Origin: Spirochaetia bacterium
GTDB lineage: Bacteria > Spirochaetota > Spirochaetia > SP-2023
Direction of reading: 5' to 3'
Assembly: GCA_965225855.1 (NCBI GenBank)
Contig: CBDDCK010000005.1
Location: 896,001-960,000 of the forward strand
Length of the DNA: 64,000 nucleotides
The translations under genes and the position numbers were made by a program. The notes beneath the pieces are model-generated. The model was not told where the DNA came from, made no database searches, and saw nothing but the letters and a program-made list of their open reading frames with translations. Positions 28,890-48,998 of this stretch are shown here, one piece after another. Position 1 is the first letter of the stretch. Each line of letters starts with the position of its first letter.

Positions 28890-30374
28890 CTATCTAAGGC
28901 TTTCGGTCAATATCTCGTTATCTGGCACACCTTCATCTAGGTTGTTTCTAACGCAACCACGCTTAGTTAGGGAAAAACAAAAGGCGCTTTGTTGCTGTTG
29001 TTTGCTGGCAATTGCCAATTCTTTTAGTACAAACTCACTTTGGCTAGCGATAAATATCTGCACGCCTTTTGCCGCTAGTGCGGCCAAGATCTGCACAAAC
29101 TGCTGCTGCAAAGCAGGGTCAATGTCGGCTTCTATTTCGTCTATCAGCAGCACACTATCGCGATTGATGATGTGGTTCTCTAGCAATAAGCGCAGCTGTT
29201 GCACTTTTTTGACCCCTGGGTCTCCCTGATCAAAAGGGATTGTTTCACCGCTAGCCAGTTGGTAGATAAATGCATCGTATGATTCAAGATTGGGGTTGCG
29301 CTTTATTGTTTGGCCACCACAGTAGTATTGTGTAAAGCATTCCAGCAAGCTTTCTTGCTGCTTGAATGCTGCTTGATCATAGGGACTGTAGATTAATTTC
29401 TGGCAGGTCGTACTATAAAAACGCGGATATTGTTGCCAATTTTCGATTACTTCGCTGTATAAGCTTAGCAATTCTGTTGGCGGCAGAAATACAGGATCAA
29501 AAAAGAATATACCTTTATGTGCCTTATCTGTAATGTTTTGCCATTGCCATTCTCGGTTATAACTTTGCAAATTAGCTTGGATATGGGCTTGCTCTATCTC
29601 CGATATTAGAAAGTATTGTTGTAAGTTTTGCTTAGGGTCTGTGCTGGTAATCGCATACAATAGCGTTAGCAAAGTGGTTTTGCCTGTGCAACTTTTACCC
29701 CAAAATACGTTGAGCCCGCCAAATTCCATCGTTAAGGCTGGCAGGGTCTGTAGGCGATTGAGCTCTAGCTTTTGTATTTTTATCGGCTGAAAGTCCTGCG
29801 GTTTTACCAGCTTGGCGTGGTATTCTCGCGTTTTATCATACATAGGGTGGTAATAAGGAGATAATGGTTGGATTTTGCGGTTATCGTCTAAAGCTTGTTC
29901 ATATTTACCTTGTTTGGCATAGCATTGACTGCGATAAAAATAGTTAATTTCATCGTTTGGGCTGTGCTCAATCAATTGGTTGTAGTCGGCTAGTGCCTTA
30001 TGCCATTGCCAGTCCCTTTCGTATAATAAGGCTCGATCGATGTAGACAAGCATATAGTTTGGCTGCAATTTAACCACTTGGTTATAATCGGCCACGGCTT
30101 TATTCCATTGTTGTTGCATTTCATATAATTTACCCCGTTGATGATAAGCAGGCACATAGCTTGGCTGTATCGCAAGGGTTTGGTTCAAGTCTCGTAAAGA
30201 TTGGTCTAGCTCTCCTAGTTCTTCATAGGCTATTGCTCTGTTGTAATAGTATTTGGCATTGTTTGGTTCTAGCTCTATAGACTTGGTATAGGCTGTTATA
30301 GCTGCCAAATAATTCCCTTTTCTTCGCTGCTTTTGCCCTCGATTGAAGGAATTTTTTGCTTCTTTATTCGTCAT
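28890..30374 (-). CDS. TPR repeat (about 5) plus ABC-type AAA ATPase, degenerate paralogue
   Basis: TPRs, Walker A GKSCTGKTT, LLIDEIE; H-loop His replaced (ASQS), frameshifted tail, no partner gene. Confidence 0.75.
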   Translation of the reverse strand: MTNKEAKNSFNRGQKQRRKGNYLAAITAYTKSIELEPNNAKYYYNRAIAYEELGELDQSLRDLNQTLAIQPSYVPAYHQRGKLYEMQQQWNKAVADYNQVVKLQPNYMLVYIDRALLYERDWQWHKALADYNQLIEHSPNDEINYFYRSQCYAKQGKYEQALDDNRKIQPLSPYYHPMYDKTREYHAKLVKPQDFQPIKIQKLELNRLQTLPALTMEFGGLNVFWGKSCTGKTTLLTLLYAITSTDPKQNLQQYFLISEIEQAHIQANLQSYNREWQWQNITDKAHKGIFFFDPVFLPPTELLSLYSEVIENWQQYPRFYSTTCQKLIYSPYDQAAFKQQESLLECFTQYYCGGQTIKRNPNLESYDAFIYQLASGETIPFDQGDPGVKKVQQLRLLLENHIINRDSVLLIDEIEADIDPALQQQFVQILAALAAKGVQIFIASQSEFVLKELAIASKQQQQSAFCFSLTKRGCVRNNLDEGVPDNEILTESLR

Positions 30375-30479
30375 TTTCTTGCTCCTGTTTCGCTGTACTG
30401 TGAATTTGGTTTTGCTAATTTACCAACCAAATCCCTGTGATTCTCTGTCTATATATCATGGATATTTGCATGATTTCGC

Positions 30480-30650
30480 AATTATAATCTATCGGTCCAC
30501 CTAATGTCAATAGAGCGACCATCATATATTTTTTATCCTAAAGAATCAAGGTAGCTTGTTCCATTGTATGATGATTGCCTTTGTCAATACTGGTTTACGA
30601 CTTCTATCAATGCCATTGAATCTTGATCGATAGTCGAAATATTTTTTATG
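30480..30650 (-). pseudogene. Diverged remnant of the HEPN gene 3' end and downstream flank
   Basis: GCTTGTTCCATTGTATGAT...TGGTTTACG.C.TCTATCAATGCCATTGAAT aligns with 36626-36693. Confidence 0.65.
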
Positions 30651-30719
30651 AGTAGCTTACAATATTGGGCTATATCGTTGATCATTGGCTGAATTTTCAC
30701 TGGTAGATGCTTGGGCAGT

Positions 30720-31259
30720 CTATGGTTGTTGCTGGTTTTTTGTGCGGTCTAGCTCTATGCTTAGCTTGAGTTTTGCCTCGGCTAATTGTTGCTTTCCCAC
30801 TATGATTTGGAAGGGTAAGCCGGTTATCTTTTGGTAATTTGTTATAATTGTGCGTACATTTGTATACATTTCATCTATAGAGTTTCTGCTATCATCATCA
30901 AGAGTATCGTCTACGTAGTAAATGAAATACAAGTAGACTCGGTTTGGTTGGCTGTCAATAAAGTTGCTTTTAATATCAAATTTACATTGATAAGAAAACG
31001 CCAATAATAAAGTGTCCAAGGCTTTCTTGACGATTTCATGTTGTTGTTGCCGCCTATATTGCTTTATCTCTTTACGAGACTTTTGGGCAAACTCGCAGAC
31101 TTCCACAAAATAAAAGCACTGTTGTTTGCTATAGAAAAAGTCCATATCCTTTAAGGGCCAACTGCTTCCCAGCTGGTCTTTTACCTGAAAGCAAGTCTGT
31201 TCCCGTAATGCTTGGTCTTGAAACTGCACTATTAATCGGCCTTCGGTAAACTCAATCAT
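30720..31259 (-). CDS. Small PD-(D/E)xK-like hypothetical protein, partner of the TPR-ATPase
   Basis: 8-bp overlap with the ATPase stop; LKDMDFF...YFVEV motif; paralogue at 39496-40083. Confidence 0.65.
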   Translation of the reverse strand: MIEFTEGRLIVQFQDQALREQTCFQVKDQLGSSWPLKDMDFFYSKQQCFYFVEVCEFAQKSRKEIKQYRRQQQHEIVKKALDTLLLAFSYQCKFDIKSNFIDSQPNRVYLYFIYYVDDTLDDDSRNSIDEMYTNVRTIITNYQKITGLPFQIIVGKQQLAEAKLKLSIELDRTKNQQQP

Positions 31260-32772
31260 GCCACATTACCTCGTCATAACAGTCGTTCATATCTAAAGAT
31301 TCACTTAGTATTTCGTTGGTTGGCACCCCGTCCTTTAGGTTGTTTCTAACGCAACCACGCTTAGTTAGGGAAAAACAAAAGGCGCTTTGCTGCTGTTGTT
31401 TGCTGGCAATTACCAGCTCTTTTAATACAAAGTAGCTGTGGCTAGCGATAAATATTTGCACGCCTTTCGCCGCTAGTGCGGCCAAGATGCGCACAAACTG
31501 GCGCACCAAAGCGGGGTGAAGGTGGGCTTCTACTTCGTCTATCAACAGCACACTATTGCGATTGATGCTGTGATTCTCTAGCAATAAGCGCAGCTGTTGT
31601 ACTTTTTTTATTCCTTGAGCTCCCTGTTTAAAAGGGATTGTCTCACCGCTAGCCAGTTGGTAGATAAATGCATTGTGTGATTCAAGATTGGGATCGGGCT
31701 TTACGGTTTCACCTTCCTGATAATATTGTTCAAAGCATTCCAGCAAGCTCTCTTGCTGATTCAGTTCTCGAAAACCTCTGTGATTATCAAGCAATTTCTG
31801 GCAGGTTGTACTGTAAAAACGAGGATATTCCTCCGAGTCTCCCAGTATTGCGCTGTACCAACTTAGCAATTCTGTTGGTGGCAAAAACACAGAATCAAAG
31901 AAGAATAGGCTGTTATGTGTTTCATCGCTCGTGCTTTGCCAGAGCCATTGTTCGCTATAGCTTTGCAAACTAGCTTGGATATTGGCTTGCTCTATCAGCG
32001 ATAGTTTGAAATATTTTCGTAAGTGTTTCTTCGGTGTTTCGCTGGCAATGCAGTGCAATAGCGCCAGTAAAGTGGTTTTGCCTGTGCTGTTCTTGCCCAA
32101 AAATAAATTGATTTGGCCAAATTCCATCGCCAATTGTGGCAGGGCATATAGCCGGTCTAGCTCCAAACTCTGTATTTTTATCGGTTTAAAATCCTGCGGT
32201 TTTACCAGCTTAGATTGGTATTCATGGCTTTTGTCCAGCATGGGGTAGTGATCGGATAGTTGATTTACTTTTCGGCTATCGGCCAAGGCTTGTTCGTACT
32301 TTCCTTGTTTGGCATAGCATTCACTGCGATATAAATAGTAGAAAACCATAGCGTTTGGGTTTCTCTCTATCAATTGGTCGTACTCGGCAAGTGCGAGATT
32401 CCACTGTTCTGTTCTTTCGTATAACAAGGCTCTATCAACATAGATCGACATATAGTCTGGGTTTAATTCAATTACTTTGTTGTAATTCTCTAAGGCTTTA
32501 TCCCATTGTTCTTGCATTTGATATACATTACCTCGTTGATGATAAGCAGGTAAATAGTTTGGCTCTATCGCCAGGGCTTGGTTTAAATCTTGCAAAGATT
32601 GCTCTAATTCCCCTAGGTATCTATAACTTATTGCTCTGCTGTTGTAGATTTCAGCATTGTGTGGTTCTAGTTCAATCGCCACGGTGTAGGCTGCAATAGC
32701 CTCCGCGTCATTGCCTGCTTTTTGTCGCTTTTGCCCTCGATTGAAATGCTTTTTTGCTTCTTTATTTTTCAT
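31252..32772 (-). CDS. TPR repeat (about 5) plus ABC-type AAA ATPase
   Basis: TPRs, Walker A GKNSTGKTT, signature-like AQGIKK, Walker B LLIDEVEAHLHP, H-loop ASHS. Confidence 0.85.
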   Translation of the reverse strand: MKNKEAKKHFNRGQKRQKAGNDAEAIAAYTVAIELEPHNAEIYNSRAISYRYLGELEQSLQDLNQALAIEPNYLPAYHQRGNVYQMQEQWDKALENYNKVIELNPDYMSIYVDRALLYERTEQWNLALAEYDQLIERNPNAMVFYYLYRSECYAKQGKYEQALADSRKVNQLSDHYPMLDKSHEYQSKLVKPQDFKPIKIQSLELDRLYALPQLAMEFGQINLFLGKNSTGKTTLLALLHCIASETPKKHLRKYFKLSLIEQANIQASLQSYSEQWLWQSTSDETHNSLFFFDSVFLPPTELLSWYSAILGDSEEYPRFYSTTCQKLLDNHRGFRELNQQESLLECFEQYYQEGETVKPDPNLESHNAFIYQLASGETIPFKQGAQGIKKVQQLRLLLENHSINRNSVLLIDEVEAHLHPALVRQFVRILAALAAKGVQIFIASHSYFVLKELVIASKQQQQSAFCFSLTKRGCVRNNLKDGVPTNEILSESLDMNDCYDEVMWHD

Positions 32773-32794
32773 GATGTGGCTCCTGTGTTTACGA

Positions 32795-34316
32795 TTGATA
32801 AACCGTTTATCAATGGTTTACGGACTCATTTTAACCGATTGGGATTCTAAAGGGTATAGACCCTTTAGCGGGGTTTCGGGCAGAGCCCCGGATATAATAG
32901 TAAAGAGTAGGCTTGTCAATCGGTGGTAGTTGTATCATTTATCAATGGTTTACGGACTCATTTTAACCGATAGGGATTCTAAAGGGTTTAGACCCTTTAG
33001 CGGGGTTTGGGGCAGAGCCCCGAATATAGTAATAAAGAATAGGTTTGTCAATAGGTGGTAGTTGTATCATTTATCAATGGTTTACGGACTCATTCTAACC
33101 GATAGGGATTCTAAAGGGTTTAGACCCTTTAGCGGGGTTTGGGGCAGAGCCCCGAATATAATAGTAAAGAGCTGGTTTGTCAATAGGTGGTAGTTGTATC
33201 ATTTATCAATGGTTTACGGACTCATTTTAACCGATAGGGATTCTAAAGGGTTTAGACCCTTTAGCGGGGTTTGGGGCAGAGCCCCGAATATAGTAATAAA
33301 GAATAGGTTTGTCAATAGGTGGTAGTTGTATCATTTATCAATGGTTTACGGACTCATTCTAACCGATAGGGATTCTAAAGGGTTTAGACCCTTTAGCGGG
33401 GTTTGGGGCAGAGCCCCGAATATAGTAATAAAGAGTTAGCTTGTCAATCGCTGGTAGTTTTCCATATTGTCAACGATAGGGATTCTAAAGGGTCAAGACC
33501 CTTTAGCGGGGTTTGGGGCAGAGCCCCGAATATAAAAATAAATAGTTTACTTGTCAATAGGTGGTAGTTGTATCATTTATCAATGGTTTACGGACTCATT
33601 CTAACCGATAGGGATTCTAAAGGGTTTAGACCCTTTAGCGGGGTTTGGGGCAGAGCCCCGAATATAGTAATAAAGAGTTAGCTTGTCAATCGCTGGTAGT
33701 TTTCCATATTGTCAACGATAGGGATTCTAAAGGGTCAAGACCCTTTAGCGGGGTTTGGGGCAGAGCCCCGAATATAGTAATAAAGAGCTGGTTTGTCAAT
33801 CGCTGGTAGTTTTCCATATTGTCAACGATAGGGATTCTAAAGGGTTGCGACCCTTTAGCGGGGTTTGGGGCAGAGCCCCGAATATAATAGTAAAGAGCTG
33901 GTTTGTCAATAGGTGGTAGTTGTATCATTTATCAATGGTTTACGGACTCATTTTAACCGATAGGGATTCTAAAGGGTTGCGACCCTTTAGCGGGGTTTGG
34001 GGCAGAGTCCCGGATATAGTAATAAAGAGCTGGTTTGTCAATCGGTGGTAGTTGTATCATTTATCAATGGTTTACGGACTCATTCTAACCGATAGGGATT
34101 CTAAAGGGTTGCGACCCTTTAGCGGGGTTTGGGGCAGAGCCCCGGATATAGTAATAAAGAGCTGGTTTGTCAATCGGTGGTAGTTGTATCATTTATCAAT
34201 GGTTTACGGACTCATTTTAACCGATAGGGATTCTAAAGGGTTGCGACCCTTTAGCGGGGTTTGGGGCAGAGTCCCAAATATTACAATAAAGAGTAGGCTT
34301 GTCAATCGGTGGTAGT
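32795..34316 (-). repeat. Tandem array of 12 palindromic repeat units (132-bp and 110-bp periods)
   Basis: Core GATTCTAAAGGGT-N4-ACCCTTTAGCGGGGTTTGGGGCAGAGCCCC at 32843, 32975, 33107, 33239, 33371, 33481, 33613, 33723, 33833, 33965, 34097 and 34229. Confidence 0.95.
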
Positions 34317-34787
34317 ACCGGTAATATTCAGTACTTCAGCTAAGCACTTTAGCAAATTCGATACTTCGGTAAGCCACAGAGTTAAGTTCCTTTGCCCTAT
34401 GCTGGTATTGCCACCGTGTGCAAGTTGATTGCGGTTTTTAATTAAAGCAGCTATGGCATCTTTGGTTTCTTGGGTTATTCTTTGCTTAAATGCTTGTTGT
34501 AATGGCTCTGTTATATCTCCTAACAATTGTGAGAGTACGTCAAACTTAAATGAGCTTTGGCGGCGCAAAATGCGCTTTTGCACTAACTGATTCAGTGATT
34601 CTCCCGAATTTTGTGCCACATACTGCAACAGGTATTGCTTGACAGACTGTTCATAGTGCGCACTGATACGAATGCAAAGATACTGGTTAAAGTCCCCTTG
34701 CAAGTCGACATCTTCTATAGCAGTAGACTTTTCTAGCTTTTGTTGTAAGCGATTATTGTTGGTGCTTATGTTGTAATCTGCTACCAT
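34302..34787 (-). CDS. HEPN domain protein (RiboL-PSP/MAE_28990-like)
   Basis: RNQLAHG Rx4H motif, N-terminal SAHYEQ helix; downstream of DUF262. Confidence 0.8.
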   Translation of the reverse strand: MVADYNISTNNNRLQQKLEKSTAIEDVDLQGDFNQYLCIRISAHYEQSVKQYLLQYVAQNSGESLNQLVQKRILRRQSSFKFDVLSQLLGDITEPLQQAFKQRITQETKDAIAALIKNRNQLAHGGNTSIGQRNLTLWLTEVSNLLKCLAEVLNITGTTTD

Positions 34788-34790
34788 AAT

Positions 34791-35906
34791 CTACAGTTTG
34801 GCAAAGGTTTGTTGTGCTAAGTCAAAGCGTTTATCTACATGGTTTTCGTCCGCTGTAGGGCCTTTACAGTATTCTTTGTATGTATTGTTCTGCAACAATT
34901 CATCGTATAATGTTTTGACTCTCTGTGGTTTAAGCTCTGTATTACTAGACAATTTGTGGGCCAACGCTACCATTACCGAATCAAAACAAGCTGCATTAAA
35001 GATTTTAAAAGGCCGAAAGGCTTTGTTTGGTTCACCGTTAAAAGCATCATAGACCAGCTTTATTGTGCGGCCAAATAACTGAAAGTCGATATTGCTACCG
35101 TCTTTATGTGCACTCATAAACTCGTTCATAAACTTTTTATATGGTGCTTTATAGTTTGCTCTGTTGTAGTAGTAGGCATAAAAACGCAGTATATATTCCT
35201 CATCTTTTTTGCGGTTATCTTCCTTGCCGTAGATGGCCCGCCAGTGCTGATTCTGGTTGAGTTGCTCGAGTTGATTGTTAAACTCACCCATATACATACA
35301 GGCCCTAAGCTCTTGGGGCGCCAATACCCGCCCGCTGGAATTGAGCCTTTCAAACACTAAGTAAATGCCACTCTGGCTGCGATCGGGTTTTTCTTGCTTT
35401 ACAACCGTAATATGTAGCATGGCATTGTCTAGCTTTCTTTGGTAGACATCCGCTAAGTCTTGGTATGTTTTACCATGAAGTGGGTTGCTTTTACCCAGTT
35501 GCAAGGCAAAACTTGTCGCTGGTTTTGTACCTGTAGGGAACTGATTGGCAAAGAATCCTTCAATGGTTTTTAGCCGTTGTTGGCCGTCAATTACCATAAA
35601 CTTTTCATCATTTGTTTTGGCTAAAAAGATGGTAGGGATAGGCAAATCCATCAATAGCGATTCTATAAATCGGGAAGCTTCGGCTTTATTCCAGACGTAG
35701 TTGCGTTGGTAGTTCGGTATAATAAACTCTTGCTTTTGTAGTTTTCTAACCAGAATCTCTACAGTAAAGTCCACCCCATACGTACTAATCTCATAATTAT
35801 ATCGTATATCTTCATTTTCTCCGCTTTCTTGTTCGGCTTGCAATTCCTGCTGTTCTGGTGTTAATCGATCACGAAAGTTATTGTCAATATCGCTTTCTTG
35901 GGACAT
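34791..35906 (-). CDS. DUF262 (GmrSD N-terminal, ParB-like) protein
   Basis: IPNYQRNYVW, FIESLLMDLPIP, IDGQQRL, FERLNSSG motifs. Confidence 0.9.
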   Translation of the reverse strand: MSQESDIDNNFRDRLTPEQQELQAEQESGENEDIRYNYEISTYGVDFTVEILVRKLQKQEFIIPNYQRNYVWNKAEASRFIESLLMDLPIPTIFLAKTNDEKFMVIDGQQRLKTIEGFFANQFPTGTKPATSFALQLGKSNPLHGKTYQDLADVYQRKLDNAMLHITVVKQEKPDRSQSGIYLVFERLNSSGRVLAPQELRACMYMGEFNNQLEQLNQNQHWRAIYGKEDNRKKDEEYILRFYAYYYNRANYKAPYKKFMNEFMSAHKDGSNIDFQLFGRTIKLVYDAFNGEPNKAFRPFKIFNAACFDSVMVALAHKLSSNTELKPQRVKTLYDELLQNNTYKEYCKGPTADENHVDKRFDLAQQTFAKL

Positions 35907-36059
35907 CGTATCCTCCTTTTATAAAGGGCAGAATAAACAAATAACTATTTGGGGTCAAACGAATGTAGAGTATAAATTCTATTTTTTGAGGTAGGGAAGT
36001 CTATTAAAAATAAACACTGAATCGGCCTAAATTAAATCCATTATCACCGATTTCTATCT

Positions 36060-36540
36060 TAGCTATCTATAACATTATTTGGGGCTCTGCCCCAAACCCC
36101 GCGCAAGGGTCTATACCCTTGAGGATCCCAATCGTTGATTGTTTAAGTTACTCTTTGGCAACCTGTCTTTAATCATCACTTATTTTTACCCCAACTATCT
36201 ACTATATCATTCGGGGCTCTGCCCGAAACCCCGCGCAAGGGGTTATACCCTTTAGAATCCCAATAGTGCATAGTTTAAGTTACTCTTTGGCAATCTGTCT
36301 TTAATTATCACTTATTTTTACACCACTTATCTATAACATCATTCGGGGCTCTGCCCGAAACCCCGCGCAAGGGTCTATACCTTTTAGAATCCCAATCGGT
36401 TATAGTTTAAGTTACTCTTTGGCAATCTGTCTTTAATTATCACTTATTTTTACACCACTTATCTATAACATCATTCGGGGCTCTGCCCGAAACCCCGCGC
36501 AAGGGTATCTACCCTTTAGAATCCCAATCGTGTATAGTTT
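36060..36540 (+). repeat. Tandem array of 4 palindromic repeat units (132-bp period), opposite orientation
   Basis: GGGGCTCTGCCC(C/G)AAACCCCGCGCAAGGG-...-ACCCTT cores at 36081, 36213, 36345 and 36477. Confidence 0.93.
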
Positions 36541-36623
36541 GACTGTTTGTTGGTGATAATCTATTGGTTGGTCTACTAGCAATAGATGGTCGATCATATA
36601 TTTTGTTAGCCTACAGAGTCAAG

Positions 36624-37202
36624 CTAGCTTGTTCCATTGTATGATAATTGCCCTTGTAAATGCTGGTTTACGGCCTCTATCAATGCCATTGAATGCTGAT
36701 ACATCTGCGAAATATCTTCCACGGTTAGCTGGCCTAGGTTTTGTTCTACGTAATTTTTATGGACAAGCTCATTGCGCTTATACCCCAATCTTATGAAAGA
36801 CTTGGCATAGCTCTCACTATAGCGATCGATACTTGTTAGTGATTCCATTTCTATATCTATGCTTTTTAGAAACCTATTAAAGCCACGTTGGTGTGGTTCT
36901 TTAAACTCAAACAGTTTATAAAACCCCCGATCGAAAACTTTAGTTTCTACTAGCTTAGTTAGGGAAGTAGTCTTGCTTGCATTTTGTAACCACTGTTTGA
37001 GCATTTCAATAAAGCAATGTTCGACATAACTAAAAGCAGAAATCACTAACGACTTACGCAGCTCTAGGTTTAGTTGGTTGGCATCGTCAAACTTCTCTTC
37101 AGCAGATAGAAATTCTTGTATTCTATGGCATAACTCTATCGATTGCTCTATTGAGCCCTTTGTTTGCATTGTTGTTTGTTGCATAAACTTATACTTTTGC
37201 AA
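36624..37202 (-). CDS. HEPN domain protein (RiboL-PSP-like)
   Basis: KSLVISAFSYVE, RNELVH Rx4H motif; overlaps the DUF262 stop. Confidence 0.8.
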   Translation of the reverse strand: MQKYKFMQQTTMQTKGSIEQSIELCHRIQEFLSAEEKFDDANQLNLELRKSLVISAFSYVEHCFIEMLKQWLQNASKTTSLTKLVETKVFDRGFYKLFEFKEPHQRGFNRFLKSIDIEMESLTSIDRYSESYAKSFIRLGYKRNELVHKNYVEQNLGQLTVEDISQMYQHSMALIEAVNQHLQGQLSYNGTS

Positions 37203-38361
37203 GAATATCTTTGGCAGTTTGTATGCGTTGTTCTACCAGTCCTTTGTTGGTAGTCGGTAGGTTGGTTTGTTGCAATCGCTGTTGAATAGTTTTCTTCAGC
37301 TGGTCAAACTGGGCTACTGTAATCGAGACTTGCACTTGCCCCTTGCAAGAAAGCTGGGCCCAAGCGGTAAACAATGCATCGAGTATCGTAACTAAAAATC
37401 TACCGTCATTACTTTTCAAGTTATAACTTTCTATGGGCTGGGTAAAGCTATTCAGAAAGTTAGCAAACATTTGTCTACACTCTGCAAGTTGTTCTTCGGT
37501 GAAGTCTTTTGTTGTTAGCGAAAAGGTATTGAGGAAACGTGCCATAGGTGGCTTGTATTCTTCGGCGTCAGCCAGAGCAAAACAACGCAACAAATACTCT
37601 ATATCTTTATAGTTGTTGTCGGGACTGTTTTGGCCTAACAACTTTTGCCATTGCGGTTTACGGTTTAGTTCATCGAGTAGTTGGTAAAACGGACCATCGA
37701 AAATCGATCGTCGTACTTCCTGGGGTGTTAGCTTAGTTCCACCAGTGTTTAAGCGCTTAAAGATTTCATACATCGAAGAAGCCTGATGTTCAGGTTTCGG
37801 ATCAAATTGAGTGATAGTGATAGTCCGCAGTGTTCGCATGTCGAATATCCATTGTTGTTTGATGCTTAGTTCGCTATACTTTATGCCATGCAAATCGTTC
37901 TTTTGTTCTACATTCGTTACTTTAGGGAGCTGCAAGCGGAAGTCTTCAAAGTATGTATTGTCATCAAATAGTTTGGGATCAATAAACTTGTAGCCTGCTT
38001 GTAGGGACTTTGACCGGATGGTGCCGTACTGATCTTTTCTGGGAAAGCGTTGTTTATAGAAAAAGTATATCGAAGATAGGCGCTGTTGGCCATCTATTAA
38101 CAATTGCTGTTTATTGTGTTCAAAGAGGAACAGCTGCGGTATCGGCAGCCCCATGATTAGCGATTCGATTAAAGAAGACGCTTGTTTTTTGTTCCACGTA
38201 AAGTTGCGTTGAAACGGTGGAATGGTGAATGAGCCTCGATCAATAAACTTTACTAAAGATTCAATATTCCAATCATTGGGTAGCGATCTTATATCATAAA
38301 CGGTTAATCCCGTTGCGTCATCCTCCTCTTCCTCTAATGGTTGTGCTTGATTTTCAGCCAT
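37189..38361 (-). CDS. DUF262 (GmrSD N-terminal) protein
   Basis: IPPFQRNFTW, LIESLIMGLPIP, IDGQQRL, FKRLNTGG. Confidence 0.9.
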   Translation of the reverse strand: MAENQAQPLEEEEDDATGLTVYDIRSLPNDWNIESLVKFIDRGSFTIPPFQRNFTWNKKQASSLIESLIMGLPIPQLFLFEHNKQQLLIDGQQRLSSIYFFYKQRFPRKDQYGTIRSKSLQAGYKFIDPKLFDDNTYFEDFRLQLPKVTNVEQKNDLHGIKYSELSIKQQWIFDMRTLRTITITQFDPKPEHQASSMYEIFKRLNTGGTKLTPQEVRRSIFDGPFYQLLDELNRKPQWQKLLGQNSPDNNYKDIEYLLRCFALADAEEYKPPMARFLNTFSLTTKDFTEEQLAECRQMFANFLNSFTQPIESYNLKSNDGRFLVTILDALFTAWAQLSCKGQVQVSITVAQFDQLKKTIQQRLQQTNLPTTNKGLVEQRIQTAKDILAKV

Positions 38362-38524
38362 AATGTCAACCTCCTCAATTGGTTTTTACCCGCTAGATTA
38401 TAGAAAAACACCGCCAGTTGTGCCATAACATGCTCTAAATTTTGTTGCATTTGCTTTCTGATACCCTACAGAAAGGCTGCCTATATATTTGAGTGATGGT
38501 AGATATTTGCACGATTGCCACTCC

Positions 38525-39420
38525 AACTATCCGCTATAGTATCTGGGGCGCTGCCCCAAACCCCGCGCAAGGGGTCTATACCCTTTAGAATCCCAATCGT
38601 GTATAGTTTAAGTTACTCTTTAGCAATCTGTCTTTGGCTTTCATTGATTTTTACCTTGACTACCTACAACATTATTCGGGGCGCTGCCCCAAACCCCGCG
38701 CAAGGGTCTATACCCTTGAGGATCCCAATTTGTTATAGTTTATCCGTAGACCATAAATAAATGATGAAACTATCAATGATGGACAAACCAATTATTTATT
38801 ATATTATTCGGGGCTCTGCCCCAAACCCCGCGCAAGGGTCTATACCCTTGAGGATCCCAATTTGTTATAGTTTATCCGTAGACCATAAATAAATGATGAA
38901 ACTATCAATGATGGACAAACCAATTATTTATTATATTATTCGGGGCGCTGCCCCAAACCCCGCGCAAGGGTCTATACCCTTGAGGATCCCAATTTGTTAT
39001 AGTTTATCCGTAGACCATAAATAAATGATGAAACTATCAATGATGGACAAACCAATTATTTATTATATTATTCGGGGCTCTGCCCCAAACCCCGCGCAAG
39101 GGTCTATACCCTTGAGGATCCCAATTTGTTATAGTTTATCCGTAGACCATAAATAAATGATGAAACTATCAATGATGGACAAACCAATTATTTATTATAT
39201 TATTCGGGGCTCTGCCCCAAACCCCGCGCAAGGGTCTATACCCTTGCGAATCCCAATTTGTTATAGTTTGTCTTATTGTTTGTTGCTCTGTCTTTGGCTT
39301 TCATTGATTTTTACCCCCACTACCTACTATATCAATCGGGGCTCTGCCCCAAACCCCGCGCAAGGGTCTATACCCTTACGAATCCCAATCGTGTATAGTT
39401 TGCTTGTCAATCGGTGGTAA
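38525..39420 (+). repeat. Tandem array of 7 palindromic repeat units (132-bp period)
   Basis: Cores at 38545, 38678, 38810, 38942, 39074, 39206 and 39338, with two linker types. Confidence 0.94.
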
Positions 39421-39495
39421 TCTGACCAATACCCTACAATTTTCGATCGGTTGATCGATTAAATTGAGCCTTTTTTCCCACTATTTAGGAAATGC

Positions 39496-40083
39496 TTATC
39501 CATTTTCCAGGCTCAAGAATACATTGAGTTTTTCTTTGGCTAATTGCTGGTCGATTAGCTTAAATTCAAAAGGCAATCTGTCATTCATTATGGTTGTATA
39601 CTTGTTTATTTCCGTTTCAATATTCTTTTTCCAGTCATCAAACTGTTGTTGACCCTGTAGATCGTCTTTTACATAGTAAATGAAATACAAGCATACTCGT
39701 TGGGGTTGGTTGTGGATAAAGTTGTTATCAATGGTAAAATTCCATTGATGAGAAAAGGCCAATAGCAAGGTATCTAAAGCTTTCTTGATGATTTCTTGTA
39801 GCTGTTCTTGCTTATATTGCTTGATAATATGGCGTTTGATGTCTTTAATAGAATTGCCTTCTCCGATAATTCCTTGCCATTCCGTAATATCTCTTTGGTA
39901 TGCTTTGGGCTGGTATTCGGAAACTTCGACAAAATAAAACCACTGTTGTTTGCTATAGAAAAAGTCCATATCCTTTAATTTCCAATTGCTTCCCAGTTTG
40001 TCTTCCACTTTAAAGCAGTTGGTTTCATTTAGGTTTTCATCTTCAAACCTTACGGTTAATCGGCTTTCTGTAAACTCAATCAT
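39496..40083 (-). CDS. Small PD-(D/E)xK-like hypothetical protein, partner of the TPR-ATPase
   Basis: Paralogue of 30720-31259; 8-bp overlap with the ATPase stop. Confidence 0.65.
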   Translation of the reverse strand: MIEFTESRLTVRFEDENLNETNCFKVEDKLGSNWKLKDMDFFYSKQQWFYFVEVSEYQPKAYQRDITEWQGIIGEGNSIKDIKRHIIKQYKQEQLQEIIKKALDTLLLAFSHQWNFTIDNNFIHNQPQRVCLYFIYYVKDDLQGQQQFDDWKKNIETEINKYTTIMNDRLPFEFKLIDQQLAKEKLNVFLSLENG

Positions 40084-42190
40084 GCCACATTACCTCGTCA
40101 TAATGGTCATGCATCTCTAATGCTTCGGCCAATATCTCGTTATCTGGCACGCCGTCTTTAAGGTCATTGCAGATGTAACCTTGCTTAGTTAAGGCAAAAC
40201 AAAAGGCGCTTTGTTGGTTGCGTTTGCTGGCAATTACCAGTTCTTCTAGTACAAAAGAGCTGTGACTGGCGATGAATATTTGCACGCCTTTCGCCGCTAG
40301 TGCAGCCAAGATTTGCACAAACTGGCGCACGAAAGCGGGGTGAAGGTTGGCTTCGGCCTCGTCTATCAACAACACACTTTCACGAGTGATGCTGTGGTTT
40401 TCTAGCAATAAGCGCAGCAATTGCAGCTTTTTTATCCCTTCCGCTCCCTGCTCTAAGGGTATTGTTTCACCGCTAGCCAGTTTGTAACTAAATTCATTGC
40501 GGGGGCTAGATTTGCGATTGCGCTCTACCGATTCGCTGCCTTTGTAGTGTTGTTCAAAGCATTCCAGCAGGTTCTGTTGGCGATTGCTGAGCTGCTTATC
40601 TGGGCTATTGCGGAGCAACTTCTGGCAAGTTTGGCTATCAATAGCACTATATTCATGGGGTAGGGTGATTATGGCACGGTACAAACTCAATAGGCATTTG
40701 TCTGGGATAAACACAGGTTCAAATAAGGTTGTGCCTCTATGCGATTGGTTTGTGGTGCTGTTCCATTGCCATTGTTGCTGATAGCTTTGCAAAAATGCTT
40801 GGATATTGGCCTGCTCTATCACCGATAGTGCAAAGTGTTGTTGTAAATTTTGTTTGGGGTTGTCGCTGGCAATGCAGTGCAATACCTTCAATAAAGTGGT
40901 TTTGCCTGCACCATTTTTACCCAAAAATAAATTGAGTTGGCCAAACTCCATCGCCAATTGGGGTAGGGCATATAAGCGATTTAGCTCCAGCTTCTGTATT
41001 TTTCTTGGTTGGAAATCTTGTTGCTTTACTAGCTTTTCTTGGTATTCTCGTGCTTGTTGATCTATAAAAGGAAATCCCGGCATCAATTGGTTTACCTTGC
41101 GGTTATCGGCTAAAGCCAGTTCGTACTTCCCTTGTTGTGCATATAGCATGCTGCGGTTCATGTAGGCTACTGCATTGGTTTTGTCTAATTCAATCGCTTG
41201 GTTGAAGTCTAACAGAGCCTGATCTTCTTGCCCTTGTTCTGCGTATAGTGCCCCACGATTGCCATAGGCATCTGCATAGTCTCGGTTTAATTCAATCGCT
41301 TTATGGTAATCTTCCAGAGCCTGCTCCCATTGCCCTCTTTCTGTATATAATAGGCCTCGGTTATAGTAAGCTGCAACATTGCCCAACTCAATCGCTTTGT
41401 TGTAGTCTAACAGAGCCTTATCTGTTTGCCCTTGTTCTGCGTATAATACCCCACGATTGCCATAGGCATCTGCATAATCTGGCTGTAACTCAATTGCTTG
41501 GTCGTAGTCTTTCAAAGCCTTATCCGTTTGCCCTTGCTTTTTATATAATACACCTCGGTTGTTGTAAGCTGTAACATTGCCCAACTCAATCGCTTGGTTG
41601 TAGTCTTCCAGTGCCTTATCTTCTTGCCCTTGTTTTTGGTATAGGTTTCCACGATTGCCATAGGCATCTGCATAGTCTCGGTTTAATTCAATCGCTTTAT
41701 GGTAATCTTTTAGAGCCTCATGCCATTGCCCATGTTTTCGATATAAGTTGCCTCGGTTGTTGTAAGATTCAACATTACCCAACTCAATCGCTTGGTTGTA
41801 GTCTAACAGAGCCTTATCTTCTTGCCTTTGTTCTGCGTATAGTACTCCACGATTGCCATAGGCTGCTGCATTGTCTGGCTGTAATTCAATCGCTTGGTCG
41901 TAATCTTTTAGTGCTTGATCCAGTAGTCCTTGTTCCCGATATAGATTGCCTCGGTTATAATAAGCTGTAGCATTGTTTGGTCTTATCGCAATGATTTCGT
42001 CATAATCTCCCAAGGATTTTTCCCATAAACCTAGGTTTTTGTATAAGTTTCCTCGGTTGCTGTAGGCTTCAATACATTTATTGTCTAGCTCAATAGCCTT
42101 GGTGTAGGCTTCAATGGCCGCCTCTATGTTCCCTGTTTTTTGGTAGTTTTCTCCCTGTTCAAAGTAGGCTTTTGCTTCTGGGTTTGGCAT
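40076..42190 (-). CDS. TPR repeat (about 11) plus ABC-type AAA ATPase
   Basis: Conserved AYxNRG TPRs, Walker A GKNGAGKTT, AEGIKK, LLIDEAEANLHP, ASHS. Confidence 0.87.
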   Translation of the reverse strand: MPNPEAKAYFEQGENYQKTGNIEAAIEAYTKAIELDNKCIEAYSNRGNLYKNLGLWEKSLGDYDEIIAIRPNNATAYYNRGNLYREQGLLDQALKDYDQAIELQPDNAAAYGNRGVLYAEQRQEDKALLDYNQAIELGNVESYNNRGNLYRKHGQWHEALKDYHKAIELNRDYADAYGNRGNLYQKQGQEDKALEDYNQAIELGNVTAYNNRGVLYKKQGQTDKALKDYDQAIELQPDYADAYGNRGVLYAEQGQTDKALLDYNKAIELGNVAAYYNRGLLYTERGQWEQALEDYHKAIELNRDYADAYGNRGALYAEQGQEDQALLDFNQAIELDKTNAVAYMNRSMLYAQQGKYELALADNRKVNQLMPGFPFIDQQAREYQEKLVKQQDFQPRKIQKLELNRLYALPQLAMEFGQLNLFLGKNGAGKTTLLKVLHCIASDNPKQNLQQHFALSVIEQANIQAFLQSYQQQWQWNSTTNQSHRGTTLFEPVFIPDKCLLSLYRAIITLPHEYSAIDSQTCQKLLRNSPDKQLSNRQQNLLECFEQHYKGSESVERNRKSSPRNEFSYKLASGETIPLEQGAEGIKKLQLLRLLLENHSITRESVLLIDEAEANLHPAFVRQFVQILAALAAKGVQIFIASHSSFVLEELVIASKRNQQSAFCFALTKQGYICNDLKDGVPDNEILAEALEMHDHYDEVMWHD

Positions 42191-42212
42191 GGTGTGTCTC
42201 CTGTCTTTACTA

Positions 42213-42368
42213 TAGATAAACCGTTTATCAACGGTTTACGGAATCATTCTAACCGATTGGGATTCTAAAGGGTCGAGACCCTTTAGCGGGGTTTGGGGCA
42301 GAGCCCCGAATATTATCATAAATAGTTTACTTGTCAATCATTGATATTTCCATCATTTATTTATGGTT
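42213..42368 (-). repeat. Single copy of the 132-bp palindromic repeat upstream of the TPR-ATPase
   Basis: Same core and flanks as the 32.8-34.3 kb array. Confidence 0.9.
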
Positions 42369-42413
42369 TTTAGTTTTTCAATAGTGTATAGTATCTAGTA
42401 GAATAGCTAATAG

Positions 42414-45272
42414 TTATTCGGTTTTAACCTTATTGTCGCTGGGTTTGTCGGTTGTTTGGGCCTGGTGTTTGTGTTTATAATGCTCTGCCAATTCTGCATG
42501 CACCCAGTCTTTTACCTTTAATCTTAGCTTGGTTCTGTGTTCATATTGCGGCAATTCATACAAGCTCAAATGCAATTTCTGCACAAATTCCGTTTGCTCT
42601 GTCTGCTTGTAATGGTCCACCATTACGGGAATATGCTGGGCTATCAATGCTTTGTGCTGGTAGAATTGCCGTTTTCTTTTAGCCGTAAGGTAGCGGCTTG
42701 TATGTAAAACCATCCAGTAGATAAACAAGGTATAAAACGGGGTGAGGGCCAACAATATATAAAGGCCTTGCCATATAACTATGACTAATATCCCAATAGT
42801 TACCGCAGTAATAGTCAAAATCCCCTTATGTTCAAGTTTAAAGAAATTGAATACCGCTTCAATCTTTGCCAGTGCTTCCTTCTCTTCTCTTTGAAACTCT
42901 TCCTTTTTATCGCTAAAACCTTGATGTAGTTCTTCTTTAAGAACCTTTGCTAGTTGCTGTTTCTGTTGCTCTATCTTGCCTAAACTATTTATATTATCCA
43001 CAGCTTTAAGGTATAAGTCTTTGGCTTGTTCAATATTTTTCTCTAGCTTTTCTTTGGCAAAGTCTTGGGCTTTTTGCCAAATTTTTCTGGCAGAATCTCT
43101 CCGGTTATCGGCTAATTCTTGCTCTGCCCATTGGCTATATAAGATGCTAAGATTAGTCCAAGCTAGAACATCATCTGGCTGTAATTCAATCGCTTGGTCG
43201 TAGTCTTTCAGAGCTTTATCCAGTTGCCCTTGCTTTTCATATAATCGGCCTCGGTTATAGTAGGCTGTAACATTGCCCAACTCAATCGCTTTGTTGTAGT
43301 CTTCGAGTGCTTTATCTGGTTGCCCTTGTTCTTCGTATAGGTTTCCACGATTGCCATAGGCTTCTGCAAAGTCTGGGTTTAATTCAATCGCTTGGTCGTA
43401 GTCTTTCAGAGCTTTATCCAGTTGCCCTTGCTTTTCATATAATCGGCCTCGGTTATAGTAGGCTGTAACATTGCCCAACTCAATCGCTTTGTTGTAGTCT
43501 TCGAGTGCTTTATCTGGTTGCCCTTGTTCTTCGTATAGGTTTCCACGATTGCCATAGGCATCTGCATCATCTGGCTGTAACTCAATCGCTTTGTTGTAAT
43601 CTTTTAGTGCCTTATCCAGTTGCCCTTGCTTTTTATATAGATTGCCTCGGTTGTTGTAAGCTGTAACACTGCCCAGCTCAATCGCTTGGTTGTAGTCTAA
43701 CAGAGCCTTATCTTCTTGCCCTTGTTCTGCGTATAGTACTCCACGATTGCCATAGGCATCTGCATCATCTGGCTGTAATTCAATGGCTTGGTCGTAATCT
43801 TTTAGAGCCTCATGCCATTGTTTTTGCTTTTGATATAGATTGCCTCGGTTGTTGTAAACGTCAACATCGCCCAACTCAATCGCTTGGTTGTAGTCTTCCA
43901 GTGCCTTATCTGGTTGCCCTTGTTCTGCGTATAATACCCCACGATTGCCATAGGCTGCTGCAAAGTCTGGCTGTAATTCAATGGCTTTATCGTAGTCTTT
44001 TAGTGCTTGATCCAGTAGCCCTTGTTCTGCATATAATAGGCCTCGGTTATAGTAGGCTGTAACATTGCCCAGCTCAATCGCTTGGTTGTAGTCTAACAGA
44101 GCCTTATCTTGTTGCCCTTGTTCTGCGTATAATACCCCACGATTGCCATAGGCATCTGCAAAGTCTGGCTGTAATTCAATCGCTTGGTCGTAATCTTTTA
44201 GAGCCTCATGCCATTGTTTTTGTTTTTGATATAATCGGCCTCGGTTATAGTAGGCTGCAACACCGCCCAACTCAATCGCTTGGTTGTAGTCTAAAAGTCC
44301 CTTATCTTCTTGCCCTTGTTCTGCGTATAATACCCCACGACTCACATAGGCATCTACAAAGTCTGGCTTTAATTCAATTGCTTTGTTGTAATCTTCCAGG
44401 ACTTTATCCGTTTGCCCTTGCTTTTGATATAGATTGCCTCGGTTATAGTAGGCTTCAATATAGCCCAACTCAATTGCTTGGTTGTGGTCTAATAGAGCCT
44501 GATCCCATTGCCCTTTTTTTACGTATAGCACTCCACGATTCGTATAGGCTTCTGCAAAGTCTCGGTTTAACTCAATCGCTTTGTTGTAATCTTCCAGGGC
44601 TTTATCCGTTTGCCCTTGCTTTTGATATAGATTGCCTCGGTTATAGTAAGCTTCAACATTGCCCAACTCAATCGCTTGGTTGTAGTCTAACAGAGCCTGA
44701 TCTTCTTGCCCTTGTTCTGCGTATAGGTTTCCACGATTCGCATAGGCTTCTGTAAAGTTTGGCCTTAATTCAATCGCTTTATGGTAATCTTCCAGAGCTT
44801 TATCTGGTTGCCCTTGCTTTTCATATAATACACCTCGGTTGTTGTAAGCTGCAACATTGCCCAACTCAATCGCTTGGTTGAAGTCTAAAAGTGCCTTATC
44901 TGTTTGCCCTTGTTCTGCGTATAATACCCCACGATTGCCATAGGCATCTGCATAGTCTGGCTGTAATTCAATCGCTTGGTCGTAATCTTTTAGTGCTTGA
45001 TCCGATAGCCCTTGTTTTTGATATAGATTGCCTCGGTTGTAATAAGTTATAGCATTGGTTGGCTCTATCGCAATGGCTTTGTTGTAATCAACCATGGCTT
45101 CGGCCCATTTTCCTATTTCTCTATATAAGATTGCTCGGTTGTTATAGGCTTTAATACATTTATTGTCTAGCTCAATAGCTAGGGCATAGGCCTCAATGGC
45201 CGCCTTTATATTTCTTACTTCTTGGTGGTTTTCCCCCTGTTCAAAGTAGGCTTTTGCTTCTGGGTTTATCAT
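42414..45272 (-). CDS. TPR protein (about 21 repeats) with coiled-coil and C-terminal membrane helices
   Basis: Alternating 34/32-aa TPRs, then a charged helix and hydrophobic ILTITAVTIGILVIVIW and LYILLALTPFYTLFIYW segments. Confidence 0.87.
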   Translation of the reverse strand: MINPEAKAYFEQGENHQEVRNIKAAIEAYALAIELDNKCIKAYNNRAILYREIGKWAEAMVDYNKAIAIEPTNAITYYNRGNLYQKQGLSDQALKDYDQAIELQPDYADAYGNRGVLYAEQGQTDKALLDFNQAIELGNVAAYNNRGVLYEKQGQPDKALEDYHKAIELRPNFTEAYANRGNLYAEQGQEDQALLDYNQAIELGNVEAYYNRGNLYQKQGQTDKALEDYNKAIELNRDFAEAYTNRGVLYVKKGQWDQALLDHNQAIELGYIEAYYNRGNLYQKQGQTDKVLEDYNKAIELKPDFVDAYVSRGVLYAEQGQEDKGLLDYNQAIELGGVAAYYNRGRLYQKQKQWHEALKDYDQAIELQPDFADAYGNRGVLYAEQGQQDKALLDYNQAIELGNVTAYYNRGLLYAEQGLLDQALKDYDKAIELQPDFAAAYGNRGVLYAEQGQPDKALEDYNQAIELGDVDVYNNRGNLYQKQKQWHEALKDYDQAIELQPDDADAYGNRGVLYAEQGQEDKALLDYNQAIELGSVTAYNNRGNLYKKQGQLDKALKDYNKAIELQPDDADAYGNRGNLYEEQGQPDKALEDYNKAIELGNVTAYYNRGRLYEKQGQLDKALKDYDQAIELNPDFAEAYGNRGNLYEEQGQPDKALEDYNKAIELGNVTAYYNRGRLYEKQGQLDKALKDYDQAIELQPDDVLAWTNLSILYSQWAEQELADNRRDSARKIWQKAQDFAKEKLEKNIEQAKDLYLKAVDNINSLGKIEQQKQQLAKVLKEELHQGFSDKKEEFQREEKEALAKIEAVFNFFKLEHKGILTITAVTIGILVIVIWQGLYILLALTPFYTLFIYWMVLHTSRYLTAKRKRQFYQHKALIAQHIPVMVDHYKQTEQTEFVQKLHLSLYELPQYEHRTKLRLKVKDWVHAELAEHYKHKHQAQTTDKPSDNKVKTE

Positions 45273-45292
45273 GATGTGTCTCCTGTTGTTAT

Positions 45293-45715
45293 GATAGATA
45301 AACCGTTTATCAACGGTTTACGGACTAATTTTAACCGATTGGGATTCTAAAGGGTATAGACCCTTTAGCGGGGTTTGGGGCAGAGCCCCAGATATTATAA
45401 TAAAGAGTTGTTTTGTCAATCATTGATAGATAAACCGTTTATCAACGGTTTACGGACTAACTCTAACCGATTGGGATTCTAAAGGGTCGAGACCCTTTAG
45501 CGGGGTTTGGGGCAGAGCCCCAGATATTATAATAAAGAGTTGTTTTGTCAATCATTGATAGATAAACCGTTTATCAACGGTTTACGGACTAACTCTAACC
45601 GATTGGGATTCTAAAGGGTCGAGACCCTTTAGCGGGGTTTGGGGCAGAGCCCCAGATATTATAATAAATAGTTAGCTTGTCCATCATTGATAGTTTTATC
45701 ATTTATTTATGGTTT
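45293..45715 (-). repeat. Tandem array of 3 palindromic repeat units (132-bp period)
   Basis: Cores at 45343, 45475 and 45607. Confidence 0.93.
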
Positions 45716-45808
45716 TTAGTTTTTCAATAGTGCATAGTTTCTTTTATTGTTTAGGAATTTAACCCTTATTATCCATTATTCCCACCCAACCTATCTGCTA
45801 TATCAATT

Positions 45809-45870
45809 GGGGCTCTGCCCCAAACCCCGCACAAGGGTATATACCCTTGAGGATCCCAATAGTGCATAGT
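45809..45870 (+). repeat. Single inverted copy of the palindromic repeat core
   Basis: GGGGCTCTGCCCCAAACCCCGCACAAGGGTATATACCCTTGAGGATCCCAAT, next to the RM gene stop. Confidence 0.88.
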
Positions 45871-48800: not shown

Positions 48801-48998
48801 TAGCGTTCCGTCCGGCCTTGGGCTCTTGTTTCGTGCTTTGTGGGGCAGTTCCCGCACTAAAAACAGGTTTTGTTTGTCCGCATAATGGTTGATCAAACGC
48901 TCAAAGCAACTCTTGATCTGCTCTTCATTGCGGCTGCCTCCGTACTGTATCACCTTGTCGCGTTCACTTAAATAGGTTTCAATCTGCGCTATACTCAT
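45873..48998 (-). CDS. Single-polypeptide restriction-modification enzyme (type IIG/ISP-like, no helicase)
   Basis: N-terminal RPDG...WESK nuclease motif, ILDPATGTGTF, IIGNPPY, C-terminal type ISP-like region (RDEWVY, YRPF, PRMP). Confidence 0.85.
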   Translation of the reverse strand: MSIAQIETYLSERDKVIQYGGSRNEEQIKSCFERLINHYADKQNLFLVRELPHKARNKSPRPDGTLKNALRLDFGFWESKDSKDDIDKEIQVKFAKGYPRNNILFEDSMQAILYQNSQEYGRVSFSDKHKLHQLLLQFTAYTPPEVKEFQAALEQFTADIPQIAAHFVELVQQQHKENIGFREEHNRFYETCKQTINKEITTHDIDEMLVQHVLTEELFSSIFSDTRFHRSNNIGQQLETLVATFLSRAERMRLLSNIEHYYSTLSAHAKQIEDHHEKQKFLKAVYESFYKAYNPKMADRLGVVYTPTEIVDFMIDSSNHLLAEHFGKTLGSPGVEILDPATGTGTFICELIEKLPKESLQYKYEHELHANEVAILPYYIAALNIEYTYQQKMKEYKEFSGLCFADTLDNTEALGTNAPNNRLELFGLSSTNAERIAEQNNKNISLIIGNPPYNAKQISYNDQNSNRKYPFIDQRIKQTYAKQGSAQNKNQLYDMYIRFVRYASDRLKNNGIVAFVCNRSFIDAMALDGLRSCVMQDFQRIYIVDLGGNVRTSGGKGTAVGNVFDIMVGVSILFFVRDSELQSTTLHYTSVEDEWTKGQKLAWLQGNPIDKIDFRQIVPSKQNHWLQQTDNDWHSLIPIINKQVKEGKATAKGETPLFKTFSNGLKSQRDEWVYDFDIDDLQTKMQYFSKVYQQTLEGKTSDKQSIKWDRELNKYLKRGITKSYNQEQIVLCLYRPFTTMHLYYDKNFNSMTYQWPQIWRKEQPNIYLCLAAPGTAKDFQTLASDTIVDLHATGDSQCIPLYYWTKEGEKRSNVTEYGLKKFREHYKDEAIMAESIWHYCYAVLHLSSYREKYAVDLKRSFPRMPLLGSTKEDFAHYQSIGQQLAELHINFATVEPFTCQREEANSKKPQKKKAIDGPLFSDSPSEEPQQAEPELVLLPKLKSDSANGTIRIDNQTTLTNIPTIAWSYRLGNRSAIDWPLERYRQALKIKDPTIAELVPAFSFAEHKEAIIDLVCRVITVSLQTVELLEMLEKEAKNHQEK

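Follow-up and report, generated by a model that had tools for sequence, protein, structure and literature searches.

The 64-kb window analysed here (the whole stretch from position 896,001 to 960,000 of contig CBDDCK010000005.1, from a Spirochaetia bacterium) contains three genes in which an N-terminal array of TPR repeats is fused to an ABC-type ATPase, two of them followed by a gene for a small nuclease-like partner. All coordinates are positions in this window, and the genes of the locus all lie on the minus strand. In the order of transcription they are a type ISP/IIG restriction-modification (RM) gene, a gene for a 952-amino-acid TPR protein, a first ATPase-partner pair (704 and 195 amino acids), two DUF262+HEPN pairs, a second ATPase-partner pair (506 and 179 amino acids) and a third, partnerless ATPase gene (494 amino acids). 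The core of the pairs is an already known, named and validated defence system, HEC-02, from which they very probably descend, and the novelty lies in the TPR-fused variant. The genes concerned are:

40076–42190, minus strand: TPR(11)-ABC ATPase of 704 amino acids, very probably HEC-02A-derived, ABC motifs all intact (HEC-02A, E 7.9e-48)
39496–40083, minus strand: HEC-02B/NERD-like partner of 195 amino acids, D40-E53-x-S, 8-bp overlap with the 704-amino-acid ATPase gene
31252–32772, minus strand: TPR(5)-ABC ATPase of 506 amino acids, very probably HEC-02A-derived, ABC motifs intact (HEC-02A, E 2.8e-49)
30720–31259, minus strand: HEC-02B/NERD-like partner of 179 amino acids, D40-E53-x-C, predicted restriction-endonuclease-like fold
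28890–30374, minus strand: TPR(5)-pseudo-ATPase of 494 amino acids, changed ABC motifs, partnerless (HEC-02A, E 7.9e-37)

Most of this arrangement had been described in a sequence-only reading of the window. Three TPR+ABC-ATPase paralogues with about 5, 5 and 11 repeats had been claimed, and the open reading frames (ORFs) of 494, 506 and 704 amino acids do carry 5, 5 and 11. The 8-bp overlap claimed for the partners of both intact copies is present at each ATPase stop, the KDMDFF...FVEV motif expected in partners of 179–195 amino acids was found in both (with EVS in the longer and EVC in the shorter protein), and the proposed neighbourhood of DUF262-HEPN and RM genes consists of two such pairs between the ATPase-partner pairs and the ISP/IIG RM gene upstream. 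The AQG/AEG-IKK and SHS motifs that had been ascribed to all three ATPases are present in the 704- and 506-amino-acid proteins only; the 494-amino-acid copy has DPGVKK and SQS in their place, and its Walker A and D-loop are altered. The ATPase domains of the three paralogues share 60–70% pairwise identity, the two partners are 49% identical, and no further close copy of the TPR-ATPase was found in the 2.7-Mb genome. The sequence-only reading had noted neither the TPR array that the 704-amino-acid copy has in common with the 952-amino-acid gene just upstream of it nor the hairpin arrays at the cassette junctions, both described below.

By Pfam the window ATPases are of the AAA_21/AAA_15 ABC type with N-terminal TPR. 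In a comparison with 5027 PADLOC models each of the three scored best against HEC-02A, which led Menshen NsnB, PARIS AriA and Septu PtuA by at least 17 orders of magnitude; this agrees with the defence-type ABC ATPase that had been proposed. The sole PADLOC match of each window partner was HEC-02B (E 4e-4 and 3e-4). The sequence-only reading had recognised no named system and had named a direct hit to one as evidence against its view; the matches of the core to HEC-02A and HEC-02B are such a hit. As set out in the accessible part of the defining preprint, HEC-02 consists of an ABC ATPase and a NERD-like PD-(D/E)xK protein, which reduced plaquing and were both required (Payne et al., bioRxiv 2024.01.29.577857). 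This preprint was the only relevant source on HEC-02 found in the literature, and the available part of PMC10853773 does not treat the ATPase-partner pair.

To check the weak partner match, a profile was built from 83 genes of 140–215 amino acids located directly behind outside ATPases (94 were extracted, 11 dropped by length). Four partners lacking the ExK lysine, namely the two of the window (25–31 bits) and two from the relatives described below, score 19.6–34.5 bits against this profile, and HEC-02B is the only PADLOC model matched by each of the four (E 7e-5 to 1e-3). The reverse profile search over 3125 ORFs was weak (best E 0.004), yet its top four rows are such partner genes. Neighbours of the partners in the ESM Atlas belong to DUF6661/NERD clusters (0.91–0.94). 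A sequence search of the partner profile against solved structures gave no match, and of 89 pattern hits of the lysine-less partner profile in viral contigs none was confirmed. The (D/E/Q)xK signature of HEC-02B is absent from the window partners; because their ExK lysine is replaced, we class the window pair as a HEC-02 variant and not as a plain member.

TPR fusions were found only in this genome, in the same-genus genome G002 and on one contig from ENA, with 2, 5, 5, 8, 11 and 23 repeats in the six fused ATPases. The partner has a homologue in one of 40 related genomes, again G002. At the first locus of G002 (L007) a fused ATPase with eight repeats (P0016, NCBI label Candidatus Haliotispira prima) is encoded with a lysine-less partner and followed by a TPR-DUF2971 gene. 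At the second (L020) an ATPase with 23 repeats accompanies a canonical partner in which ExK, and with it the HEC-02B signature, is intact (HEC-02B, E 1.3e-31); as judged from translations, hsdS-like and hsdM-like genes flank this pair, which places it inside a type I RM operon. On the ENA contig the ATPase (P0007) has 2 repeats and its partner (P0006) is lysine-less. Among 188 outside loci examined no TPR fusion was detected, in a partial survey comprising the best 80 of at least 500 confirmed GTDB loci (N-terminus within the locus in 75), 28 same-phylum loci from the 28 of 400 genomes with a match (nine further match rows without a locus were left out) and the best 80 of at least 410 metagenome loci. 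A search for long forms returned seven proteins, four known fused ATPases and three with other N-terminal additions; it missed a protein of 1107 amino acids and is therefore insensitive. P0015, P0017 and P0018, HEC-02A-like ATPases from other sources, carry different N-terminal additions (PF14088 on two), which suggests that the N-terminus of these ATPases may be a general slot for accessory domains. For the 506-amino-acid protein no TPR+ABC cluster was seen in the ESM Atlas (best 0.80), which is no evidence of absence. A TPR-fused ABC-ATPase defence is undescribed in the literature searched, with a mention in Krishnan et al. (2020) on ABC ATPases being possible, and nothing was found in the searched literature on the combination of DUF2971 with TPR. 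Just behind the TPR-DUF2971 gene of G002, three lipoprotein-like genes follow in tandem (L006:12956-17041); they show runs of asparagine and repeats of beta-propeller-like motifs.

In the accessible part of the defining preprint, Inserts 1 and 2 of the ATPase are proposed to set trigger specificity, and how HEC-type ABC ATPases sense infection is called open (bioRxiv 2024.01.29.577857). Insert 1 was taken here as the segment that runs from Walker A as far as the VFLP strand. It comprises 63–72 residues in all six fused ATPases versus 98–173 (median 102) in all 102 others; the other ATPase segments are unchanged in length, and Insert 1 is shorter by 30–40 residues in the fused clade. In a tree of 108 ATPase domains the six fused ones group together as a single clade (SH-aLRT 97 in a quick search, stem 1.08), so the fusion appears to have arisen once. 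In the partner tree (50 of 88 rows) the L020 partner falls within the main clade with a support of 99, and the four lysine-less partners group with KEMD-type partners of Bacteroidota and one spirochaete family (support 90, with a long-branch warning). Subfamily profiles agree with this tree (99 vs 11 bits for the L020 partner, 2–9 vs 11–23 bits for the lysine-less ones). Since the partners of the fused clade come from two subfamilies, partners were likely swapped within it.

The TPR arrays are not confined to the ATPases: a profile of the repeats matches 20 of 2788 ORFs of this genome. The tails of these proteins include DUF2971 on three (two of them strong PDC-S31 matches), several without Pfam match and membrane-type ones, and one ORF carries an N-terminal TIR domain. 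In two TPR clusters, type III Mod-like methylase genes (one scanned) stand in alternation with the TPR genes, and the arrays on different tails within these clusters share 66–76% DNA identity. At the locus itself the array of the 704-amino-acid ATPase is 82% identical at the DNA level to that of its 952-amino-acid neighbour over 1001 nt, including an exact match of 62 nt, versus just 68% over 277 nt to its own paralogue. Likewise in G002, the N-terminal stretch of the L007 ATPase is 81% identical over 101 nt to the adjoining TPR-DUF2971 gene. TPR arrays are thus exchanged between neighbouring genes. As separate observations, tandem pairs of a type III Mod-like methylase and a TPR-effector with DUF2971 (PDC-S31-like) or unnamed tails are located at G000:C5:110500-130200 (L132) and 770000-788000 (L133), the latter additionally with a ThsB-like TIR gene next to an 8xMP gene and with a GmrSD gene, and a 758-amino-acid protein of TIR fused to TPR repeats is encoded at G000:C5:81274-83550 (L131).

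Mobility of this kind would also fit an ordinary HEC-02 system with a lineage-specific TPR passenger or scaffold, derived from recombination among tandem TPR genes and without any part in sensing. The spread of the repeats over several unrelated tails, the range of 2 to 23 repeats, the internal repetitiveness of the long arrays (76–84% DNA identity) and the restriction of the fusion to one clade among the loci examined are in line with this. The 5-repeat arrays, however, have no internal DNA repeats and do not drift freely, being under purifying selection (ratio of non-synonymous to synonymous substitution rates, dN/dS, 0.37); part of Insert 1 is lost in every fused ATPase, and the tails that can be named are of conflict type (DUF2971/PDC-S31, TIR). 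A mere passenger is possible in our view, though on the unlikely side.

The partner proteins combine a conserved core with an altered active site. The acid position is D or E in 83 of 83 outside partners, the Glu position is E in 82, the ExK lysine is present in all 83, and a lysine in the helix after the catalytic strand (K79) in 82. In the lysine-less partners D40 and E53 occupy the first two positions and serine or cysteine the third (lysine in 0 of 4); D40, E53, E6, K37 and K79 are kept in all four at about 40% overall identity. The replacement of the ExK lysine (EVC/EVS) is thereby confirmed, and the PD-(D/E)xK fold, likewise proposed before, is probable from the HEC-02B match, the alignment of core residues and the fold search. 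This fold has an alpha-beta-beta-beta-alpha-beta core whose acids are on strands 2 and 3. In the model of the 179-amino-acid partner (pLDDT 91) D40 starts the strand 41–45 and E53 lies on the strand 48–57. A wide fold search with this model against 48161 chains listed Upx first (Z 8.0) and in rows 2–11 Can2, CdiA-CT, Cdn1, FokI, BspD6I, Cfr10I and McrBC (McrC) with Z of 5.8–7.4; ten of the top 11 matches are nuclease entries, with root-mean-square deviations of 3.0–4.0 over 105–130 residues and middling Z. The proteins named for rows 2–11 we take to be PD-(D/E)xK proteins. With a first, low-confidence model (pLDDT 67) the same kind of search gave mixed matches. The lysine-less partners are under purifying selection (pairwise dN/dS 0.31 and 0.18, third pair saturated). 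Recent pseudogenisation of the partner is rejected on these values. In another family the lysine has moved to the second core helix, a variant described as PD-EXX-K in the available part of PMC3424549. We infer that the partner would still be active, most simply through K79 in place of the lost lysine.

It could be argued instead that the partner is a catalytically dead nuclease fold, which serves as adaptor, antitoxin or DNA-binding subunit, with the output produced elsewhere by ATP depletion, the TPR-membrane neighbour or DUF262-HEPN. Serine and cysteine are unable to do the job of a lysine that is invariant outside, and the partnerless copy remains largely intact despite its dead motifs. 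The retention of five core residues at such an overall identity, however, points the other way, and the neighbours differ between genomes, with no fixed alternative effector seen. We therefore consider a dead partner quite unlikely.

The context of the locus is a defence island. The neighbouring genes and the repeats at the cassette junctions, which contain repetitive extragenic palindromic (REP)-like hairpins, are:

42414–45272, minus strand: TPR protein of 952 amino acids with about 20 repeats and a coiled hydrophobic C-terminal tail
34302–35906, minus strand: DUF262 (371 amino acids) + HEPN (161 amino acids), PD-T4-2-like
36624–38361, minus strand: DUF262 (390 amino acids) + HEPN (192 amino acids), PD-T4-2-like
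45873–48998, minus strand: type ISP/IIG RM enzyme of 1041 amino acids
32806–34316, minus strand: 132/110-bp tandem array immediately ahead of the 506-amino-acid gene, with 12 REP-like double hairpins (132-bp units amplified up to 12-fold) and TTGACA-17-TATATT in 8 units
36063–36540, plus strand: 132-bp tandem array (4 REP-like hairpins) separating the two DUF262-HEPN cassettes
38515–39443, plus strand: 132-bp tandem array (7 REP-like hairpins) behind the 195-amino-acid partner
42200–42340, minus strand: one REP-like unit upstream of the 704-amino-acid gene, bearing a promoter-like site
45292–45828: three minus-strand REP-like units upstream of the 952-amino-acid gene and one plus-strand unit behind the RM gene

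Both DUF262 genes are of the GmrSD_N type. The GC-rich double hairpin occurs in 28 copies in the genome, all within 32868–45828 of the window and in five clusters at cassette junctions. Among further genomes it was absent from G001 and G002, and one match with two mismatches was found in G003. Folding of four units gave two far more stable than shuffled sequences (z -3.7 and -3.5) and two that were not. The minus-strand units directly upstream of the 952-, 704- and 506-amino-acid genes bear sigma70-like sites, eight with 11 of 12 matches. No Y1 (RAYT-type) transposase that could explain the repeats was found in this genome; the repeats would offer homology for duplication and change of copy number. 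The C-terminal 250 residues of the 952-amino-acid protein have no Pfam or PADLOC match and contain a single hydrophobic stretch near residues 815–845. Elsewhere in the window, an IS1595-family transposase gene, followed by a DNA methylase gene with a weak NA-iREase1 (inactive-REase) match, is located at 203–2804, and a CRISPR-like array (period 66, about 55 units) at 2877–6542 adjoins a gene for a 1242-amino-acid Cas9-like protein with RuvC and HNH matches at 6957–10685. Two cobalamin-independent methionine synthase genes lie at 50757–53045 and 57926–60079, the second matching part of the catalytic domain only.

The third ATPase copy of 494 amino acids is degenerate, and the positions changed in it include those of Walker A (Asn), signature (Glu/Gln), D-loop (Leu-His) and H-loop (His). 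Where 95% or more of 47 outside ATPases agree, in 58 alignment columns, it keeps 32, compared with 36–39 in the other five fused proteins, and its ORF ends 12 codons before the stop of its paralogues. No partner remnant was found behind it. It has its own sigma70-like promoter (12/12 match, 30510–30481), and the dN/dS is 0.41 for ATPase pairs that include it and 0.34 for the two intact ATPases. This copy would be a dead-ATPase relic or a decoy. Of three genomes from the same genus, two (89% and 92% complete) have no strong HEC-02A match. Together with the degeneracy of the third copy, this could indicate that the genes are not anti-phage at all, being instead duplicates in decay or TPR proteins that serve host or housekeeping interactions. 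ATPase and partner, however, are both under purifying selection, intact operons occur in two species, and these are embedded in a defence island and a type I RM operon; patchy presence is moreover usual for defence genes and counts against a role outside defence. We regard such a role as very improbable.

The explanation that we favour, with somewhat better than even confidence, is a HEC-02-like pair of sensor and effector, with the TPR arm having taken over the recognition of the trigger and the ATPase gating a still-active NERD-like nuclease. The TPR array would likely bind a phage-encoded trigger, ATP-driven closure of the ATPase would switch on the overlapping partner, with which it would form a complex, and the activated partner, predicted to cut nucleic acid, would halt infection. 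The TPR array would have replaced Insert 1 as the sensor; the loss of Insert 1 and the exchange of arrays between effectors lend such a sensing role indirect support. Several points weigh against this explanation. The steps from trigger to cleavage, i.e. sensing, binding and nuclease activity, are inferred. Loss of Insert 1 and gain of TPR are one shared event on a long branch and count once, and the ATPase tree comes from a quick search with a long-branch warning. The distribution of TPR arrays on many tails across the genome fits a passenger expansion as well, and the L007 copy stands amid housekeeping- or lipoprotein-like genes except for its one TPR-DUF2971 neighbour. As to the partner, the PADLOC matches of the window proteins are weak, no credible Pfam family was found for them, neither partner model gave a Foldseek match at E<=0.001, fold-match Z values of 6–8 are common by chance, and K79 is near-invariant even where the canonical lysine is kept, so that it need not be a substitute.

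A bolder form of the sensor-effector explanation would see a diversifying innate-immune receptor repertoire of this lineage, with interchangeable TPR arrays on HEC-02 ATPase, DUF2971/PDC-S31, membrane and TIR outputs in islands bounded by promoter-bearing REP-like repeats; TPR would have replaced the sensing insert, the partner lysine would have been relocated, and the third copy, its ATPase dead, would serve as a decoy or as a helper that only senses. In its entirety we hold this to be unlikely; if true, TPR-sensing STAND receptors would for the first time have a counterpart of the ABC class. In any case the natural series of 2, 5, 8, 11 and 23 TPRs on one clade, with two partner subfamilies and a short Insert 1, makes the sensing question testable. 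The fused clade could show that ABC-ATPase defences are retargetable by changing the repeat arm, and the lysine-less yet conserved partner provides a test of active-site plasticity in NERD-like nucleases. The reach is narrow: the three sources that have so far yielded the variant all belong to, or lie close to, a single spirochaete genus.

In Avs systems a TPR arm senses phage proteins to switch on a nuclease; their ATPase is of the STAND class, with C-terminal TPR and a fused effector. The likeness to the window proteins is by analogy only and concerns the idea of a TPR arm as phage-protein sensor, and membership is rejected, since the window ATPase is of the ABC type with N-terminal TPR. Menshen (NsnABC) has NsnA (DUF262), the NsnB ATPase and NsnC in one operon. 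The window ATPases match NsnB with E 1e-15 to 1e-19, and NsnA is matched by the DUF262 genes nearby. Membership is nevertheless rejected: NsnB falls far below HEC-02A, and the DUF262 genes pair with HEPN, with REP-like arrays lying between them and the ATPases. Inspection by eye revealed no DUF262-like gene beside the two G002 copies. Septu (PtuAB) and PARIS (AriAB) share with the window pairs the coupling of an ABC ATPase to a nuclease effector, and among solved ATPases PtuA and AriA come closest in sequence (E 1e-11 to 1e-7). The Septu effector PtuB is of the HNH type. That of PARIS is of the TOPRIM type according to the accessible part of the defining HEC preprint (bioRxiv 2024.01.29.577857). 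The partners match neither the PtuB nor the AriB model at E<=1, which rules out membership; moreover, the ATPase match is far weaker than that to HEC-02A, and TPR is lacking in both systems. Compared with HEC-02 itself, the window clade differs in its N-terminal TPR array of 2–23 repeats, absent from the 188 outside loci, in an Insert 1 that is not full-length (at full length it extends the beta-sheet of the HEC-02 ATPase), in the replaced ExK lysine of the window partners and in its tandem paralogues with a dead-motif third copy, whereas both families by profile, the gene order, the overlap and the defence-embedded context are those of HEC-02.

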